In this document: positions 9,349 through 59,992 of the stretch, piece by piece
Layout: each line of letters opens with the position of its first letter
How positions within the stretch are numbered: position 1 is the first letter of the stretch
Origin: a bacterium
Lineage (GTDB): Bacteria; Patescibacteriota; Saccharimonadia; CAILAD01; GCA-016700035
DNA: 64,000 nt
Direction: 5' to 3'
Assembly: GCA_016700035.1 (NCBI GenBank)
Contig: CP064998.1
Location: 662,699 to 726,698, forward strand
The notes under the pieces: generated by a model
What the model saw: only the letters and a program-made list of their open reading frames with translations
The model's database searches: none
Told to the model about the DNA's origin: nothing
Program-made: the position numbers and the translations under genes

Positions 9349-9509
9349 TCAGAATAAATAAAATTTACTTACTTTGATTGAGATTTGTAAAGAAGTTGCC
9401 CCGTCCAAAAACCAAAGCTTTTGGACGGGAGAGGAGGACAGTGCGCCAGAGTCTTCGCAGAGATTTGCCCTACGGCGAATCTCTGCAGACCCTTTAGTGC
9501 TGTCCGACG

Positions 9510-9880
9510 TGGAGCCGGGGGGAATCGAACCCCCGTCCAGAAGGTAAATTCTTACCCTGCTACGACTATTCCCAAGATTTTGCGTGTAACGCTCACGCTT
9601 GGCTAACTGGGTTGCCAATCGGCAATACTGCCGAACTCGTCGCGTCTATTGCGTGATGTCAATCACTCTTTCGCGATCGTCAGTCGTCTGTTCCGACCGT
9701 CATTCTCCGCTTCTGTTGCCAAGCTGCGGTGAATTGGCTCCGTCCTTCTGCGCACATGGTACGAGTGACAATAATCGGGCGTGTTAGGCGGCGATTATTT
9801 TGGGTGCTCCGTTTTACGAGTCTGAGCAACTCGAGTCGCAATAGTAAGTCTTATTCCCTCTGTCGAAACCGATCGGCCCC
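9510..9880 (-). ncRNA. ssrA: tmRNA (SsrA), one-piece, about 371 nt; CCA not encoded
   Basis: Minus strand starts GGGGCCGAUCGGUUUCGACAGAGGG (tRNA-like 5' half). It ends GGACGGGGGUUCGAUUCCCCCCGGCUCCA (T-arm plus acceptor). Downstream hairpins act as terminator. Confidence 0.8.
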
Positions 9881-9890
9881 AGAAGAGTGG

Positions 9891-10190
9891 CTACACGCAG
9901 TAGCCGTTGTCGACCAAGTCCTGCACACGACAGAACTGGGCCGGAATGGAGTCGGTCGGCAGACCAAGCTCCGCATCGAAGCTACGGATGACGTAGCGCT
10001 CGACCGGATTGGGGTACATGCCCTCAGGCAGACTCCAATCACTGGCATCCAGCGCCACGAACCCCTCAACGGGGATCCTGACGTGGAGCATGAGGAGATC
10101 CGTGTGGACCCCGAGAATGCGGACGAAGCCACGATCCTCTTCCTCGCCACCCACCTCTTCGTGGGTGAGGACGTAGATCTTGTCGGACAT
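9891..10190 (-). CDS. hypothetical acidic protein (99 aa), high GC
   Basis: third codon positions almost all C/G in this frame. Confidence 0.5.
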   Translation of the reverse strand: MSDKIYVLTHEEVGGEEEDRGFVRILGVHTDLLMLHVRIPVEGFVALDASDWSLPEGMYPNPVERYVIRSFDAELGLPTDSIPAQFCRVQDLVDNGYCV

Positions 10191-10343
10191 GATCTGCCTT
10201 TCGGCTCAGGGAATCGACTTACTCGATTCACATCTATTTGAAGGTGCTGGGATTGGTCCCAGCCACAATATTCGAAACTTCATTCAAATACTATGGTTGG
10301 GACCCTCCTAAAGCCCCCAAAGGAACTCTAGGAGGGGTGGGGA

Positions 10344-10700
10344 TCAGTCCGAAGACTTGTCCTCACCACCGAGATCCTCGCAGCGCGCGGGAATCTTGAT
10401 GCTCGAGCCGGGCTCGATCTGGCTCTCCTTGGAGAGTCCGTTGCGAGCCAGGATCAGGCGACCCCACTCGGAACGGTAGTCTCCTTCGCCCATGAAGGCG
10501 GTCAAGGAGCTGGCGTACCAGTCGGGGTAGGTGGCATCGATGACGTCACCCAGCATGGGGTCGTAGTCACCGGTGGTGAACTCGTCGACCTGCGCCGAGT
10601 AGTCACACGGGAAGTCGGCAGTCATGTTGGCTGCGTTGCCGCAGCCCGCGAGAGCCACGAAGATGGTCAGGGACAGGGCGATCACGAGGATCTTGCGCAT
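10344..10700 (-). CDS. lipoprotein with C-terminal LysM-like segment, high GC
   Basis: signal peptide plus lipobox LAGC; C-terminal GRLILARNGLSKESQIEPGSSIKIP resembles the LysM C-terminal half. Confidence 0.55.
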   Translation of the reverse strand: MRKILVIALSLTIFVALAGCGNAANMTADFPCDYSAQVDEFTTGDYDPMLGDVIDATYPDWYASSLTAFMGEGDYRSEWGRLILARNGLSKESQIEPGSSIKIPARCEDLGGEDKSSD

Positions 10701-11819
10701 TTTGTATCACCTCACGACGATCCAGGCTGCGTTGGCCCGCGGGGAGACTCCCCACCAAAACTCACGAATATCATGAACTTTGGTGAGCCCCAGAACCCGA
10801 AGGTTCTGGGGAGTGCAGCACATAGGCTGCGAGATTGCCGGGGCGCTATTACCCCACAGTGCGGTCGCAAGCGGTTAAGGCCGAAGCCTAACAAAACCAC
10901 AAGCGGCACACCCGGCACAGCGACTTCCATCTTTTTTGAGAGAGGAAGGTAATGAAAGTCGCGCGAGCTTGACGTCGTCCTGTCATGGAATTGAGCTCTT
11001 TCACCGAGCTCAACCAAAGGGGAGGACAACGTCACATTATAACCGTTGGGGTCCCCTTTTCTGCCTTTGTTAACTACCCACCTCTCTCGAGGTCACCCTT
11101 TTGGGTGTCGCCGTTACTCGACGCAGGCGCAGTTTTACCAATTTTATCTCCCAGAAGCCCAGATTAGGGTTCAGCCAATCTCACTCGAGGACGCTGGTGC
11201 GTAGCTCTCGCTTCAAAAGGCCCCCGCATTACTATGCGGGTCAACGGTTAGCGAATTTGCTAGGTGGAGACGCCTCCACATAGCAGGACACCTACTCACT
11301 CCCCAAGAAGAGGCAGGTTTTCAATGCCCTTGTAATCTGGAAGCTTTATACTCCCGGCGCGAGGCCATATTTTGGCACCGCGCTGGAAGTATAAACTCCC
11401 AGGTTTTAAAGAACTAAAAACTGATGTGTGTTGGTTTAAAAAGGTCAAAACAATACGCACATACGCTCATGTGGCATAACAGCCAGCGTGGGATTGTCGG
11501 GGTTTTTAAAGCAGTTTCGTCCTTACAGGACTCATCAGCTGGAGTACACACTCCAGGACTGCCCCCACTAAAAGCAGCTGTACTGCCTTTTGATGGGGTG
11601 TGAGCTGCGCCAAGCGCTTACAAAGCCACATCTCACTGGCTCGATTTTTATGACTTTCTTGTCAGAGTTTAGTGACGGCCGGTTCTCTCCAGCCCCAAGG
11701 AGCTTCCCCCTGGAATTACGGGCCTTTTACGAGTGCCATACTCGGGTTATGCTTTTCGGATTCTTTTTCCCTCCAATAAGCTTCTGTTGCCAGGCGCTAC
11801 CACACGCCCCGCAGAACCG

Positions 11820-12020
11820 CTACTCGCGATCCCACAGCTCCCAATCGCCCGGGTGGGTCTGGTCGAGCTCATCGCAGAGCTCGATGTAGGTATGACCTGT
11901 GACGATCAACACCTCCCCGGTCGAGATCACCTCGACCAGCCAGTCACTCCGATCAAGCTCTGCGATCCGGCCAGCAGCCGGAGGACGCGGAGCACAGCGA
12001 CGGGTGTAACCTCCTGCCAT
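11820..12020 (-). CDS. small hypothetical protein (66 aa), high GC
   Basis: perfect Shine-Dalgarno AAGGAGGTG 5 nt before ATG; strong C/G third-position bias; second gene of a 2-gene operon. Confidence 0.45.
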   Translation of the reverse strand: MAGGYTRRCAPRPPAAGRIAELDRSDWLVEVISTGEVLIVTGHTYIELCDELDQTHPGDWELWDRE

Positions 12021-12068
12021 TTCACCTCCTTTCAAGGTGTCGTTGGAATGGAATGGAGTTTGCTCGGG

Positions 12069-12404
12069 CTACAAGTAGCCCGGCACTTCGAACTCCGAGT
12101 TGGTTGACTCCTCGCTTGCCACACACAGGTGGCCATCGAGGTGGCCGGCTTGAAAACCGACCTTGTAGCCGAGAATCAGCATGGCCAAGCCACGGTGGTC
12201 TTCGGGCATGTCGAACTCCTCGAGGTCACTGTAGACCATCGCGGCGACCGACACCAGATGGTGCTTGATGATCGCCTCGAGACTCTCACCATCGAGGTCT
12301 TCAGCCACGAGGATCATGCCGAGCATCTGCTCGACCGCATCATCGCTGAAGAGGTTTTCGAAATCGAGATGGTTGGTGGTGGTGCTCATAGGCCTGAACC
12401 GCAT
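12069..12404 (-). CDS. acidic hypothetical protein (about 106-111 aa), high GC
   Basis: ORF with GC3 bias; candidate promoter TTGACA-17-TAAACT about 70 nt upstream on the minus strand. Confidence 0.5.
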   Translation of the reverse strand: MRFRPMSTTTNHLDFENLFSDDAVEQMLGMILVAEDLDGESLEAIIKHHLVSVAAMVYSDLEEFDMPEDHRGLAMLILGYKVGFQAGHLDGHLCVASEESTNSEFEVPGYL

Positions 12405-12605
12405 GAGAGGAATAAGAGCGATCCAAAACTATGAGCACCAGGTATAAAATAAAGGTTCTGTTAAAAAATCTATGAAGAATTTATAACTAAAGCTGAGTTT
12501 AGCAGAAAATATATTTTTTGTCAATACTATTTGTCATTTTTTATATATTTTATACATTTTTTAGCTTTTTACCCTAAAATTTACTTTATTTTTTTGTAAA
12601 TATAT

Positions 12606-12630
12606 ATAGAAAAAGACCCACATTGGGTCT
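12606..12630 (-). terminator. rho-independent terminator (minus strand) ending the candidate ncRNA
   Basis: minus strand reads agacccaatgtgggtct followed by TTTTTC. Confidence 0.6.
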
Positions 12631-13030
12631 TACTTAAATTTGCTTATGGTAGATGTTTTGGGGCGACCCCACGTACTGCGGGGTCGCCCCTTCGCTCGTT
12701 TTGACTTTTAACTGTTTTGCTCCTCGCCACACTCCGAATCATTACGTCATCGGACTCTGGTTTTTAGAGCAAGCACCCCCGTTTTGCCGAGCAGGCTTTT
12801 GGGATGCAATCATTCGCAACTATAGACGAGACGCAGGTCGGGCACAGGTTGCAAATGATTTTCGGCGTTTAGCCACAGAGGGTGATTTCAGGTAAACTCA
12901 CCCATAGCTTCCCCTTTCGGGTCGTGTTGCGCCCGCTAATAGCAGACAGATGACAGAGTAACATCCTCCACACCTAAGTTCCAGCACCACAGAGAGATAA
13001 TCTCCGCTAGCCTTCACTAGCAACGCTTGC
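12631..13030 (-). ncRNA. candidate novel ncRNA of about 420 nt with no ORF; family unknown
   Basis: Bounded by a perfect consensus promoter (13031-13059) and a canonical terminator (12606-12630). Internal perfect 11-bp GC hairpin at 12660-12690. No minus-strand ORF with an RBS. Confidence 0.5.
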
Positions 13031-13059
13031 ATTATACTTAGATTCTAATTATTTGTCAA
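13031..13059 (-). promoter_or_regulatory. consensus sigma70 promoter TTGACA-17-TATAAT driving the ncRNA candidate
   Basis: minus strand reads TTGACAaataattagaatctaagTATAAT, immediately downstream of the trmB-like stop. Confidence 0.65.
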
Positions 13060-13072
13060 TGTTTATCAACAT

Positions 13073-13831
13073 TTATTTCTGATGCTTATTCCAGGCCAGC
13101 TCAAAAAGCTGTCGCAATACCGACACCAACTCACGACCCTCAATCACAATCCCCACCGGCTGATCTCCGGAATAGGTGACAATACTAGCTCGATCTTCAT
13201 AGAGGTTAAGATCAGCTTTTACATCTTCTGATAAACGAATAGTTTCTCTTAGAGATTCTGGATCACTCTTTAGCTCTCTCGACCCAGAGTAAAAACCTTT
13301 TCCAGTAATCTGCTTCCTTTTTCGCTTCAGTGCGTTTGATTCCGTATGATCAGGAGCGATTTTATCTAGTTCATCTAGATTTGTCATGCCATACACGACT
13401 TCATTAGGCTTAGCTTTGCGCTTAAGATATGAGCTAAGCGCCAGAATTGCCTCTGGCCCCTTAAAGAACCGTACTACCGGGGCATCATCAGCAATTTCCG
13501 ATCGATTTACTTCATTAAGCTCTTTCATCACACCCTTGAGCTGACTTTTACGAGAGTCAATTTCTTTCTCCATCACTCCAAGGTAACGATCAATCGCCTC
13601 GGGTGGTTCAGCTACGAATACGGCCTTTTTACCTTCAGTAGCCTCGGAAACTAGTCCAATATCGGCAAGTTCAGCCAAAATAACATAAGTAGTCGCACGA
13701 TTTACTTCAGCTTGTTCGGCAATACGCTGAACAGCTGCCGGCCCCAAGAAGAGAGCTGCAACATACACTTTAGCCTGCTTTTCAGTTAGGCCAACGGCTT
13801 CAAGTTTTTTGGCAAGATTTGCGATTTGCAT
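13073..13831 (-). CDS. TrmB-family transcriptional regulator
   Basis: N-terminal winged HTH LTEKQAKVYVAALFLGPAAVQRIAEQAEVNRATTYVILAELADIGLV typical of TrmB-like regulators. Confidence 0.65.
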   Translation of the reverse strand: MQIANLAKKLEAVGLTEKQAKVYVAALFLGPAAVQRIAEQAEVNRATTYVILAELADIGLVSEATEGKKAVFVAEPPEAIDRYLGVMEKEIDSRKSQLKGVMKELNEVNRSEIADDAPVVRFFKGPEAILALSSYLKRKAKPNEVVYGMTNLDELDKIAPDHTESNALKRKRKQITGKGFYSGSRELKSDPESLRETIRLSEDVKADLNLYEDRASIVTYSGDQPVGIVIEGRELVSVLRQLFELAWNKHQK

Positions 13832-13837
13832 AAACTT

Positions 13838-13866
13838 ATTATACTTACGTTGTCAATTTTTGTCAA
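13838..13866 (-). promoter_or_regulatory. sigma70 promoter TTGACA-17-TATAAT for the TrmB-like gene
   Basis: minus strand reads TTGACAaaaattgacaacgtaagTATAAT. The core closely resembles the ncRNA promoter. Confidence 0.55.
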
Positions 13867-13898: not shown

Positions 13899-13931
13899 GC
13901 GTGCTCTCTCCTGGGGGAGGAAAGCACGCGG
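13899..13931 (-). terminator. rho-independent terminator of the high-GC membrane protein gene
   Basis: minus strand reads cccgcgtgctttcctcccccaggagagagcacgcggg followed by TATTTTT. Confidence 0.55.
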
Positions 13932-13973
13932 GCGGGTTACCGACCCTGTCAAGGGTCAGCAACAGAAGGTGGC

Positions 13974-14498
13974 TCAGTCGCCGGCGACAGACTGTTGCGC
14001 CTCTTCGGTGAGCTGCCGGATCTCCGTGGAGACTCGGCTGGACTTGATGGCGCCAGGCTCGTCGGCCTTGGCTGGAACGGCGAGGAATTCACCATCAACC
14101 AGGGATGTGCCAGTGGTACCCGTCAGGAGGCGTGACAGACGCACCCATTCAGTCTGGTACCGGGCGAGCTCGAGAGATTTGGCCTCATCCGAGAGACTGT
14201 CCTCTCGTACTCGTGCTTCAATGAGTGTGTTCGGGAACACCGCCAGTGCGGCGCTCTCAAGACTGTCGCCCTCCCGCGCCTGCAGGATGATGGCGTGGTC
14301 GTAGACCTTGCCGATGTCCTCGGCAGTGTTAACCGTCGGGGAATCGGCCTGAATCAGCATAAAGATAGCAAGGATCACAAAGACTCCTGCAACCACACCG
14401 CTGATCCACCAGACTCGGTGGCCCTTGCTACCTTCATCGAGTGGGCGAAGCGTAGTGCTCTGGCGCTCGGTCTTGCGAGACTCTTCGGTTATGGGCAT
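13974..14498 (-). CDS. membrane-anchored hypothetical protein, high GC
   Basis: single TM helix WWISGVVAGVFVILAIFMLI; strong SD AGGAGG; promoter TTGACA-17-TATAAA at 14550-14578. Confidence 0.55.
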   Translation of the reverse strand: MPITEESRKTERQSTTLRPLDEGSKGHRVWWISGVVAGVFVILAIFMLIQADSPTVNTAEDIGKVYDHAIILQAREGDSLESAALAVFPNTLIEARVREDSLSDEAKSLELARYQTEWVRLSRLLTGTTGTSLVDGEFLAVPAKADEPGAIKSSRVSTEIRQLTEEAQQSVAGD

Positions 14499-14598
14499 AG
14501 CTGACCTCCTAATGGGTCGTCAGATACTGCATGGTGCAATAACCCGCTATTTATAGCAAAAAGCTAGTTTTTTGTCAAGGAGATTTAACATCCACCCC

Positions 14599-19653: not shown

Positions 19654-20690
19654 TAAGATAATTCTACCACTTCTGGCCGTGTCAGTGCATGTTGAACCAG
19701 CTCATTTACTAAACTGCTAAAATCTATACCTGCCACAGCGGCAGATTGCGTAAAGAGACTATGGTTAGTTAGCTCGGGTAGCGTATTCGCCTCCAGCACC
19801 CACAGTCGACGTCGAGCCAAAATCATATCGACCCGACTGTACCCTTGTAGCTTTAATATTTTATGCACCCCAAAGGCATACTGCATAATTGCCTTCTGGG
19901 TTGAGCTAGAAAATGGTGCTGGTGTAATCACTTCCGTAACTTTAGCCGTATACTTTGCGCGGTAATCAAAGAAGCTCTTTTTGGCATATCGAATCAATGT
20001 TGGCGGTAGCGCCATAGTCGTGCCATCACGCTCTAAAATACCACAACTAACTTCATGGCCAGCTACATACTGTTGCACAATCACCCGATCATATTTGGCG
20101 CTTGCCAGCTCCAGAGCTTCGGTCAGCTCATTAACCGTGCGAGCTATCGATACGCCAATTGAGCTACCGCTTGCATTGGGCTTAATAATAACCGGCAAGC
20201 CATAAGCTGCTACTGACTGCCTGATAATACGCGCCCGGGCCGCTACCCAGCGAGACCGTTCAATCATTGTATAATCTGGTACCGCTATACCAGATCGGCG
20301 CAAAACTTGACTGGTAGCATGCTTATCAAAAGCCAGTCGGCTAGCCCGTACGCCACTCCCTTGATAGGGCAATCCCGCTTGATCTAAGAGGCGCTGAATA
20401 CCACCATCCTCACCAAATTTACCATGCATGGCTATTATCGCCACGTCTATTAAATGAGGTAGCCGCTCAACAGCGTCCCGTACGCCAAAAGCCTCATCGT
20501 ATTCATTAGCCCGATAAGCTTCGGGGTTGGCATAGACATACCAGCTCTGGTCCGGTGTCACTAATATTGGCCTTATCATATAGCCTAACTGTTCCAGCGC
20601 CAATAAGATATTATCCGCCGTCGCCCGTGACACTTCATATTCGGGAGATGGACCCCCAATCAATACCCCTACTCTCACCCCTGTTTGCAT
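19653..20690 (-). CDS. ddl: D-alanine--D-alanine ligase
   Basis: N-terminal VGVLIGGPSPEYEVS and ATP-grasp fold motifs. Confidence 0.9.
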   Translation of the reverse strand: MQTGVRVGVLIGGPSPEYEVSRATADNILLALEQLGYMIRPILVTPDQSWYVYANPEAYRANEYDEAFGVRDAVERLPHLIDVAIIAMHGKFGEDGGIQRLLDQAGLPYQGSGVRASRLAFDKHATSQVLRRSGIAVPDYTMIERSRWVAARARIIRQSVAAYGLPVIIKPNASGSSIGVSIARTVNELTEALELASAKYDRVIVQQYVAGHEVSCGILERDGTTMALPPTLIRYAKKSFFDYRAKYTAKVTEVITPAPFSSSTQKAIMQYAFGVHKILKLQGYSRVDMILARRRLWVLEANTLPELTNHSLFTQSAAVAGIDFSSLVNELVQHALTRPEVVELS

Positions 20691-59883: not shown

Positions 59884-59992
59884 GCCTATATTGTACAGCA
59901 ACATGGACAATCTGCGCTTGTATTGACAAAACATAACTTTTTTGCTATAATAGTTTAGTTCATCGTACCCAAAAACACCCCTAGGAGTTGGC

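Follow-up and report, generated by a model that had tools for sequence, protein, structure and literature searches.

In a 64,000-nucleotide stretch of the bacterial contig CP064998.1 (hereafter the window), we analysed a transcription unit of about 420 nt that lies on the minus strand directly behind a gene for a TrmB-family winged-helix protein. Judged by its conservation in related loci, the unit is a real RNA gene, unannotated in the resources searched, and its core appears to be a Shine-Dalgarno (SD)-led open reading frame (ORF) of only five codons. We give about an even chance to the reading that it encodes a stable, strongly transcribed, structured dual-function RNA that is also a miniature mRNA. 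In that case a tiny glycine-containing peptide (consensus M-G-x-G-hydrophobic), made in quantity, would most probably be the product. A first-pass annotation of the window had described the unit as a novel non-coding RNA (ncRNA) without an ORF. An autonomous, strongly promoted and terminated unit without an Rfam family was borne out by our analysis, and comparison with relatives shows it to be conserved and structured; the absence of an ORF held only in part.

The unit starts behind a sigma-70-type promoter, TTGACA-17 nt-TATAAT, at 13059..13031 (minus strand), whose −35 box begins 13 nt past the stop codon of the TrmB-like gene (13075-13073) and which, as first annotated, is a textbook match to the consensus at 12 of 12 positions. 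Only three 12/12 promoters were found in the window, where by our own estimate ∼0.008 would be expected by chance: one belongs to the RNA unit, one to the TrmB-like gene, and the remaining one lies on the plus strand at 59923-59951. At the other end there is a canonical intrinsic terminator at 12631..12608 on the minus strand (AAGACCCAATGTGGGTCTT plus a T run; in the transcript AAGACCCAAUGUGGGUCUU and then a U run), which shows compensatory changes in relatives. The transcript ends were deduced from these promoter and terminator positions, ∼6-7 nt past the −10 box and at the terminator T run, giving a predicted transcript of ∼420 nt (12606..13024, minus strand). By sequence, the unit has what is asked of a dual-function small RNA (sRNA), its own promoter and its own terminator, and both are conserved in relatives. 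No terminator was found between the TrmB-like gene and the RNA, so that co-transcription of the two is possible. Comparison of the RNA promoters of relatives revealed no conserved operator in the promoter spacer. A candidate operator at −35, the inverted repeat ATGTT-GATA-AACAT over the −35 box, was rejected as it is not kept in the related locus L084.

Between promoter and terminator the longest minus-strand ORF is 44 aa and none reaches 60 aa, in agreement with the first-pass annotation; the longer frames present (25-44 aa) lack an SD and conservation and were discarded as coding candidates. The 425-nt stretch folds at −162.5 kcal/mol, compared with −128 ± 5.4 kcal/mol for dinucleotide shuffles (z = −6.3), and none of 100 shuffles equalled it. 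A covariance model built from the closest group of sequences (R1) found a single copy of the RNA within the window; its matches to a second group of relatives are weak (E = 5e-4 to 0.4), and it is not yet a model of the whole family. The RNA unit is chromosomal, and neither the RNA motif nor the TrmB subfamily was found in the viral contigs searched.

We compared the unit with known RNA families using Rfam 15 (4227 models). The gathering scan of the whole window returned only the transfer-messenger RNA (tmRNA) and one tRNA, and a permissive scan of 12400-13200 (E ≤ 10) produced only snoRNA/sRNA noise of at most 26 bits, with no credible match. The RNA is also undescribed in the full-text literature libraries searched, which, like the Rfam result, is absence of evidence within those resources only.

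Homologous loci were gathered by exact-protein look-ups and one metagenome scan; several of the contigs derive from the runs SRR14932614, SRR14932647 and SRR14932650 and from activated sludge. In 29 of 29 distinct loci with a TrmB homologue at least ∼46% identical, a promoter scoring 10-12 of 12 lies 3-23 nt past the TrmB stop; the 325-600 nt behind it contain no long ORF and are richer in G+C than the spacer beyond. A long GC hairpin and/or a terminator closes this stretch wherever the available sequence reaches far enough. Loci whose TrmB homologues are ≤38% identical showed no such arrangement of promoter, ORF-poor stretch or terminator. The TrmB-RNA pair stays linked despite changed upstream neighbours, which are either leucyl-tRNA synthetase (LeuRS) and a hypothetical gene or rpsT/holA. 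The RNA evolves faster than the protein: where TrmB has 96% amino-acid identity the RNA has 90% nucleotide identity, and where TrmB is 90% identical the RNA aligns in patches only. The closest named relatives of the TrmB-like protein are Patescibacteria and Saccharimonadales. A contig scan based on LeuRS returned mostly Chloroflexota/Firmicutes sequences at 45-53% identity and one relative at 63%, and was uninformative for synteny.

The 5′ domain (12926..13024, minus strand) is predicted to form a perfect four-way junction, on which independent folds and covariation agree. Its closing helix P1 pairs 13024-13020 with 12930-12926 (GUUGC/GCAAC) and encloses P2 (13018-12977), P3 (12975-12948) and P4 (12947-12931), all on the minus strand, with junction strands 0-2 nt long. 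When 22 homologous 5′ domains were each folded alone by minimum free energy, every one gave a closing helix with exactly three branches. The closing helix begins a few nucleotides from the predicted 5′ end, P2 is long, P3 is a GC-rich perfect stem and P4 is short. Under strict junction criteria the fold was seen in 20/22 homologues compared with 111/2200 dinucleotide shuffles (∼5%), with the caveat that the 3′ boundary of the folded domain was set by a sequence motif. P1 (mostly GUUG/CAAC), P3 and P4 all vary in sequence among the 22 homologues with pairing kept. For the seven closest sequences (A7), 86.5% of cells pair in a hand-mapped structure, against at most 52% with slid partners, and changes on both sides occur at 18 pairs, against 2-10 with slid partners; the observed values were reached by 0/500 shuffles. 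Single-sequence folds, the shuffle control and the hand-mapped structure were used in place of RNAalifold: with plain MAFFT alignments as input, that program called long-range pairs that were in part spurious (GACCCG with the terminator), and it did not succeed for the second group.

Towards the 3′ end (all positions on the minus strand), a variable middle domain with several hairpins (12691..12879) is poorly conserved in sequence between groups and holds a helix, GCUUGCUC..CGAGC, around a variable insert (alignment columns 296-300 with 386-390). It is followed by a GC-rich perfect hairpin (the clamp), GGGGCGACCCC..GGGGTCGCCCC at 12690..12660, which had been noticed in the first-pass annotation and extends to 13 bp. 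A perfect hairpin of 10-16 bp occupies the equivalent 3′ position in ∼20/22 homologues with unrelated sequences, and compensatory changes are seen in alignment columns 399-429. Between clamp and terminator runs a G-poor single-stranded tail, AAAACAUCUACCAUAAGC (12642..12659), with weak conservation of AAAC(A/C)U. The P3 loop (GGAUGUU) might form a pseudoknot with the 3′ tail (AACAUCU), but on inspection this pairing is missing from both L087 and L093, and the idea was dropped. We found no sign of a metabolite riboswitch pocket: the junction strands have no more than 2 nt, helix sequences vary freely, and no Rfam riboswitch matches. The few unpaired junction nucleotides, which are not conserved, argue against a metabolite aptamer.

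Behind the junction lies the mini-ORF, ATG GGT GAG TTT ACC TGA (MGEFT, stop; 12905-12888, minus strand), with conserved SD, start and stop. The first-pass annotation had stated that the small ATG frames lack a ribosome-binding site, which was mistaken: the ATG at 12905 has AAGGGG (12916-12911) at 5-nt spacing, and the frame is conserved in relatives. AAGGGG would form six pairs with the usual anti-SD, one of them G-U. It is carried by the loop and 3′ arm of a hairpin, CCC-GAAA-GGG (12921-12912, feature 12911..12921, minus strand), that is invariant in the closest group; in distant homologues the arms covary, with UUCC/GGAA, CUCC/GGAG or UUUCCC/GGGAAA instead of CCC/GGG. A second hairpin, GGGUGA/UCACCC (∼12902-12880), also present in the first-pass annotation, is formed by the start region and a 3′ arm at 12880..12885 (minus strand) and closes around the mini-ORF. 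For the start region, the predicted pairing partner is a segment 0-12 nt past the stop in 7/7 close homologues and in ∼13/22 overall, and its partners differ even among close homologues (GAUGG/CCAUC, AUGGGA/UCCCAU). Since SD and start codon are both predicted to be paired, access of the ribosome to the mini-ORF looks gated by two small hairpins.

The best-conserved block of the whole RNA, GACCCGAAAGGGG-N4-7-ATGGGYGA, reads as an SD-led ORF, with the ATG 5-7 nt past the SD, four sense codons after it and then the stop. All 22 homologues have, 16-31 nt behind P1, an SD in which at least 4-6 bases match, then 3-11 nt of spacing, a start codon, 4-7 codons and a stop. When these 72-nt segments were shuffled with dinucleotides kept, 9.2% of the shuffles had the arrangement by lenient criteria; by strict criteria it was seen in 19/22 homologues and 2.0% of shuffles. 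The start codon is ATG in 20 and GTG in two, and the stop is TGA in 16, TAA in four and TAG in two, with a sense codon never found at the stop position. A conserved small ORF, which the first-pass annotation had set against its own proposal, is thus present in silico throughout the set. By equal criteria a scan of the whole window found no other intergenic mini-ORF; one candidate at 36532-36512 was rejected as its ATG lies inside the loop of an ordinary terminator hairpin. Read-through of the mini-ORF stop was considered and set aside, as the frames beyond it show by eye no relation between the window and L087.

The predicted peptides are very short and vary between lineages. MGEFT is found in four sequences and MGGL in two, and MGEGF, MGEGY, MGTTI, MESL, MGNGI, MSGY, MGEGI, MGSGI, MNGY, MDGLYAC, MSGI, MGSI, MGATG, MGGGY, MGGGV and MGGGC occur once each. 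MGEFT remains unchanged through GGT>GGC, TTT>TTC and ACC>ACG while the enclosing hairpin switches partners. The leucine of MGGL is encoded by TTG in one lineage and by CTT in another, all third bases are in use in the glycine codons, and the length of the frame is held at 4-7 codons despite indels. These synonymous changes, together with the kept stops and length, are what selection on translation would be expected to leave in the sequences.

The second group (14 sequences) has an extra ORF inside P2, always exactly four codons long and behind a strong AGGAGG. Its peptides read M-[G/D/E]-G-[V/Y/M/L/I] in 12/14 cases, the exceptions being MNTG and MGAV, and its stops are TAG (seven), TAA (four) and TGA (three). 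Glycine is present in 35/36 peptides. In more distant lineages the equivalent place holds a longer SD-led frame (8-52 codons), ending in IGEGS*, IGGGS*, GGLY* or GEGIGG*; MGGFIFSQ* was also found. From these endings, the conserved core of the peptide would seem to be its C-terminal G-x-G-hydrophobic part.

SD-led initiation is not the default in this genome, and the conserved SD is therefore not background. Many genes in the window, including those for the TrmB-like protein and LeuRS, look leaderless, as they lack an SD and their −10 box is 6-8 nt ahead of the ATG (TATAAT-AAGTTT-ATG for the TrmB-like gene; TATAAT-TGCGCCC-ATG for LeuRS). Such −10-like boxes just before an ATG were seen at 13838-13831, in the 17028 region, at 20690, 32417, 46514 and 3754, and at other sites. 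The pattern suggests that leaderless mRNAs are widespread in the organism.

The linked gene (13831-13073, minus strand) encodes a 252-aa protein of the TrmB family with TrmBL2-like architecture, as indicated by Pfam, AlphaFold2 and Foldseek. Its own 12/12 promoter (13866..13838, minus strand) ends 6 nt before the ATG, so that its mRNA is probably leaderless. The protein matches Pfam TrmB (PF01978) with E = 2e-12, and its AlphaFold2 model has a mean pLDDT of 89.9. The best Foldseek match was the archaeal chromatin protein TrmBL2 (5bpd, E = 4e-12, full-length alignment), and the C-terminal part of the model could be aligned to the sugar-binding domain of TrmB (2f5t). Searching PDB sequences with the TrmB profile yielded nothing, and the fold search alone was informative. 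By sequence and model, the protein has the N-terminal winged helix, coiled coil and C-terminal effector-type domain of the TrmB family. On this modelling, the linked protein is a winged-helix DNA-binding TrmB-family protein and not an RRNPP-type peptide receptor.

In the reading that we favour, a structured dual-function RNA that is also a miniature mRNA, the consensus promoter would start transcription at the foot of the four-way junction. Six nucleotides behind the junction would come the short SD-bearing hairpin and then the five-codon ORF MGEFT, with its start codon paired to bases just past the stop, followed by the variable domain, the GC clamp and the terminator. The 5′ junction and the 3′ clamp and terminator would shield the RNA from exonucleases, making it abundant and long-lived. 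Ribosomes that open the two gating hairpins would translate the mini-ORF, and this translation event would be the selected output. The computational support covers the conservation of the unit, the junction, the clamp, the SD, start and stop, the small size of the ORF and the link with the TrmBL2-like gene. From these we infer transcription, translation and stability, and also that the peptide, rather than the passage of the ribosome, is the effector.

Several points weigh against this reading. The support for a mini-mRNA is all in silico; five codons offer little statistical power, and the sequences are related, so that the counts are not independent. The G-rich codons and the putative SD are also arms of conserved hairpins, and selection at the RNA level could therefore mimic part of the coding signal. 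The predicted pairing of SD and AUG speaks against constitutive high translation. The peptides are only 4-7 aa long and vary by lineage (MGEFT, MGTTI, MESL, MGGGY), no genes for maturation, export or a receptor were identified nearby in the flanks examined, and a simple mRNA would not need an elaborate four-way junction. We ranked this dual-function or peptide reading first, followed by a ribosome sensor, a structural RNA, an attenuator or element of a 3′ untranslated region (UTR), and a housekeeping RNA.

The rival that survives best is a ribosome-sensing riboregulator, in which the mini-ORF is a cis-acting sensor and the peptide is not the product; we hold it to be a minority possibility, though a serious one. 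The RNA would refold, and change in activity or stability, when ribosomes occupy the frame of 4-7 codons, arrest on it or lose their peptidyl-tRNA there; such occupancy might depend on a small molecule or antibiotic in the exit tunnel, or on the supply of glycyl-tRNA. The hairpin-gated SD and start codon are typical of conditional translation, nascent-peptide sensors would be expected to combine a variable N-terminal extension with a conserved C-terminus, as the amino-acid sequences do here, and the near-universal glycine would fit. Drop-off readily occurs on very short frames (PMC10192219, PMC2490762), minigenes can serve as regulators (PMC8708949), and msrD is under a macrolide-responsive leader (10.1101/2021.11.29.470318). 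However, there is no regulated ORF within the unit, whose terminator is ∼250 nt from the mini-ORF; the downstream genes stand behind an AT-rich spacer with their own consensus promoter, and no alternative terminator/antiterminator pairing was identified in the RNA.

It is unlikely that the RNA is purely structural, either a protein scaffold or sponge (for the TrmBL2-like protein or a GGA-binding protein) or a trans-acting sRNA, with SD, AUG and stop as by-products of hairpins. The strong covariation of the junction and clamp would be expected of such an RNA, as would its tight co-inheritance with a nucleic-acid-binding protein; in addition, a small hairpin with an A-rich loop has the 'SD' as its 3′ arm, and the AUG is within a hairpin. 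The behaviour of the frame is harder to explain in this way: the hairpin geometry around the ORF shifts between close relatives while the peptide stays MGEFT, UAA, UAG and UGA interchange and are never replaced by a sense codon, leucine is written as TTG in one lineage and CTT in another, and the length of 4-7 codons is kept despite indels.

A bolder proposal, which we regard as a long shot, is that the unit is a natural, dedicated 'minigene RNA', a new ribosome-directed class in Patescibacteria. The only job of such an RNA would be to be translated into a 4-7-residue peptide that acts on, or reports on, the ribosome making it. Translation might clear or sense an antibiotic from neighbouring or host bacteria that binds the tunnel or peptidyl-transferase centre, or, alternatively, might set tRNA or ribosome availability via controlled peptidyl-tRNA drop-off; the four-way junction and gating hairpins would then time ribosome access.

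Improbable, in our view, is a leader, attenuator or 3′-UTR element, which would control read-through from the TrmB-like gene into the small-protein genes downstream of the RNA (111 aa, 12404-12069, and ∼66-71 aa, 12035-11820; minus strand). The missing terminator between the TrmB-like gene and the RNA would allow this, the same small-protein families lie behind the RNA in many relatives, and a short ORF before a terminator recalls classical attenuation. Against it, the RNA has its own 12/12 promoter. Beyond the terminator, in the window and in relatives, there is an AT-rich spacer of 100-250 nt and then a separate TATTGACAAAAAAT-type promoter (12524..12496 in the window), and the mini-ORF is too distant from the terminator for ribosome-coupled attenuation. 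A disguised housekeeping RNA (divergent RNase P, 6S, signal recognition particle RNA or a second tmRNA) would fit the ∼420-nt size, strong promoter and high structure but is very improbable, as nothing in Rfam, including the RNase P models, matches at E ≤ 10, an SD-led ORF behind a four-way junction is not the architecture of any of these RNAs, and a standard tmRNA is already placed by Rfam at 9507-9880, so that the earlier exclusion of tmRNA and RNase P holds.

Patescibacteria (Candidate Phyla Radiation, CPR) have tiny genomes in which non-coding DNA is scarce and hardly any regulatory RNAs have been characterized, and a 420-nt gene with a perfect promoter, a covarying junction and a conserved five-codon frame is notable among them. 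It also marks a blind spot of annotation, as gene callers and Rfam both return nothing for the unit. If translated, the mini-ORF would be among the shortest conserved bacterial genes, and a rare natural case of a large RNA scaffold around a minigene. Questions about minigenes would then become testable here: peptide against ribosome sensing, drop-off, and drug responses.

Other features of the neighbourhood were noted. The window contains segments of 55-64% G+C (9880-12400 and 13900-14500), compared with ∼45% for the genome region, that encode small conserved proteins without Pfam matches: one of 111 aa with GFQAGHLDGHLC, one of ∼66-71 aa with the motif WLVEV...WELxDRE, and one of 174 aa. In relatives, each small-protein gene is behind its own TATTGACAAAAAAT-type promoter. 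At strong promoters downstream of the RNA in L090, L093, L095, L096, L101 and L106, CGTTG(Y) follows ∼5-10 nt past the −10 box; at window position 13024 it coincides with the start of P1 (GCGTTGC). It could be an initial-transcribed-sequence signal or a binding site. Another motif, CCTGGCAACAGAAG, recurs directly behind small ORFs, at ∼11781-11794 (minus strand) in the window and also in the distant relatives L096 and L097. Upstream, LeuRS is 809 aa without a NUDIX domain in the window and 953 aa with an internal NUDIX domain (PF00293) in L087-L089 (2366-5227), L092 (2373-5234) and L179.

At 11509-11564 (minus strand) there is a hammerhead ribozyme of type III (RF00008) whose catalytic core is complete and whose cleavage site is GUC. 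It scores 40.9 bits (E = 3.6e-7), under the gathering score of 48.5, and four relatives lie above that score (49-53 bits). Hammerheads in relatives are at 8280-8334 in L084, 10379-10434 in L087, 8049-8103 in L092 and 5273-5327 in L180, with more at 8330-8384 in L093, 5810-5864 and 6429-6483 in L096, and 2908-2960 in L106; without exception they share the strand of the TrmB-RNA pair and lie downstream of it. In the window, the hammerhead is inside ∼1.1 kb (∼10760-11820, minus strand) without an ORF of ≥60 aa in an otherwise dense small genome, between the ∼71-aa ORF and a 118-aa lipoprotein-like ORF. This stretch is 77-88% identical in L084/85, L181, L087, L180 and L092 and may hold further structured RNAs. 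Directly upstream of the start of the 118-aa ORF is a ∼75-nt element, CCCCAGAACCTTCGGGTTCTGGGG...GGTGGGGAGTCTCCCC (10741-10815, minus strand), which has two or three copies per locus in L096 (∼7003, 7604, 7963), L106 (∼3740, 4079), L180 and L181, and may be a repeated 5′-UTR or cis-regulatory RNA.

In both groups of relatives, as in the window, the strand of the TrmB-RNA pair also carries the tmRNA, a few kb further downstream (9507-9880 in the window, 10378-10748 in L084, 10031-10400 in L092), including L096 (6649-7005), whose upstream neighbourhood is different. The order TrmB, RNA, small ORFs, hammerhead and tmRNA thus seems, from these sequences, to be conserved, and the RNA family gives a marker for the locus of TrmBL2-like gene, RNA, small proteins, hammerhead and tmRNA.

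Among known systems, the tag reading frame of tmRNA has no SD and no start codon, and the mini-ORF differs from it by having an SD and an AUG. Short minigenes and resistance pentapeptides have precedents in the bar minigenes of phage lambda and in the E-peptide encoded by 23S rRNA, and erythromycin-resistance peptides have the consensus M-x-(L/I)-x-V. Effects of minigenes on translation (PMC2490762) and a regulatory minigene (PMC8708949) have been described. The resemblance is that SD-led frames of 2-6 codons act on the translating ribosome or on tRNA pools; those minigenes are, however, cryptic, phage-borne or engineered, whereas here there is a conserved chromosomal gene with a dedicated scaffold, and the M-x-(L/I)-x-V consensus differs from the peptide consensus found here.

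The leader of msrD is reportedly a hexapeptide. Leaders and attenuators of this type share with the unit a short ORF with a gated SD, followed by structure and a terminator, and conserved C-terminal residues. In contrast to them, the unit contains no regulated gene, has ∼250 nt before its terminator and is followed by a separate downstream promoter. Control of msrD is by a macrolide-responsive leader (10.1101/2021.11.29.470318). We take drug-sensing leaders, and likewise minigene and drop-off biology (PMC2490762, PMC8708949, PMC10192219), as mechanistic analogies only. Leaderless communication peptides (SIP/LCP, with RopB-type receptors) are the products of tiny, directly translated peptide genes (PMC10518010). 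As here, such a gene is tiny, unannotated, beside a transcription-factor gene and variable between lineages (PMC10518010). The neighbour here is instead a TrmBL2-like winged-helix protein without a TPR domain, not an RRNPP/TPR receptor, and the peptides are shorter, Gly-rich and inside a large conserved RNA structure, in Patescibacteria rather than Firmicutes. No peptide transporter was seen in the flanks examined.

The closest likenesses are to two other systems. Dual-function sRNAs such as RNAIII/hld, SgrS/SgrT and SR1/SR1P have ORFs of 26-43 or more codons. They resemble the unit in being stand-alone, structured promoter-to-terminator transcripts that hold a short SD-led ORF. They differ in that the ORF here has 4-7 codons, in that they are not known to have the four-way junction and GC clamp, and in having no sequence or Rfam relationship to the unit, which has no known base-pairing target. 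The conserved structure beyond the ORF suggests, on sequence grounds, a role at the RNA level. In microcin C operons, mccA is a seven-codon gene on an abundant, stable, short terminated RNA, and the peptide is the product. The unit would share with it an extremely short SD-led ORF on a terminator-ended transcript, and presumably high expression and stability. Unlike the mccA product, the peptides here end in T, F, Y, I, L, V, C, M or G and not in Asn, their M-G-x-G-hydrophobic consensus is unrelated, and there is no MccB-type adenylyltransferase or exporter among the called genes of the flanks examined. Without sharing sequence or defining partners with either, the unit would by analogy work most like a dual-function sRNA or a tiny-gene transcript of the mccA type.

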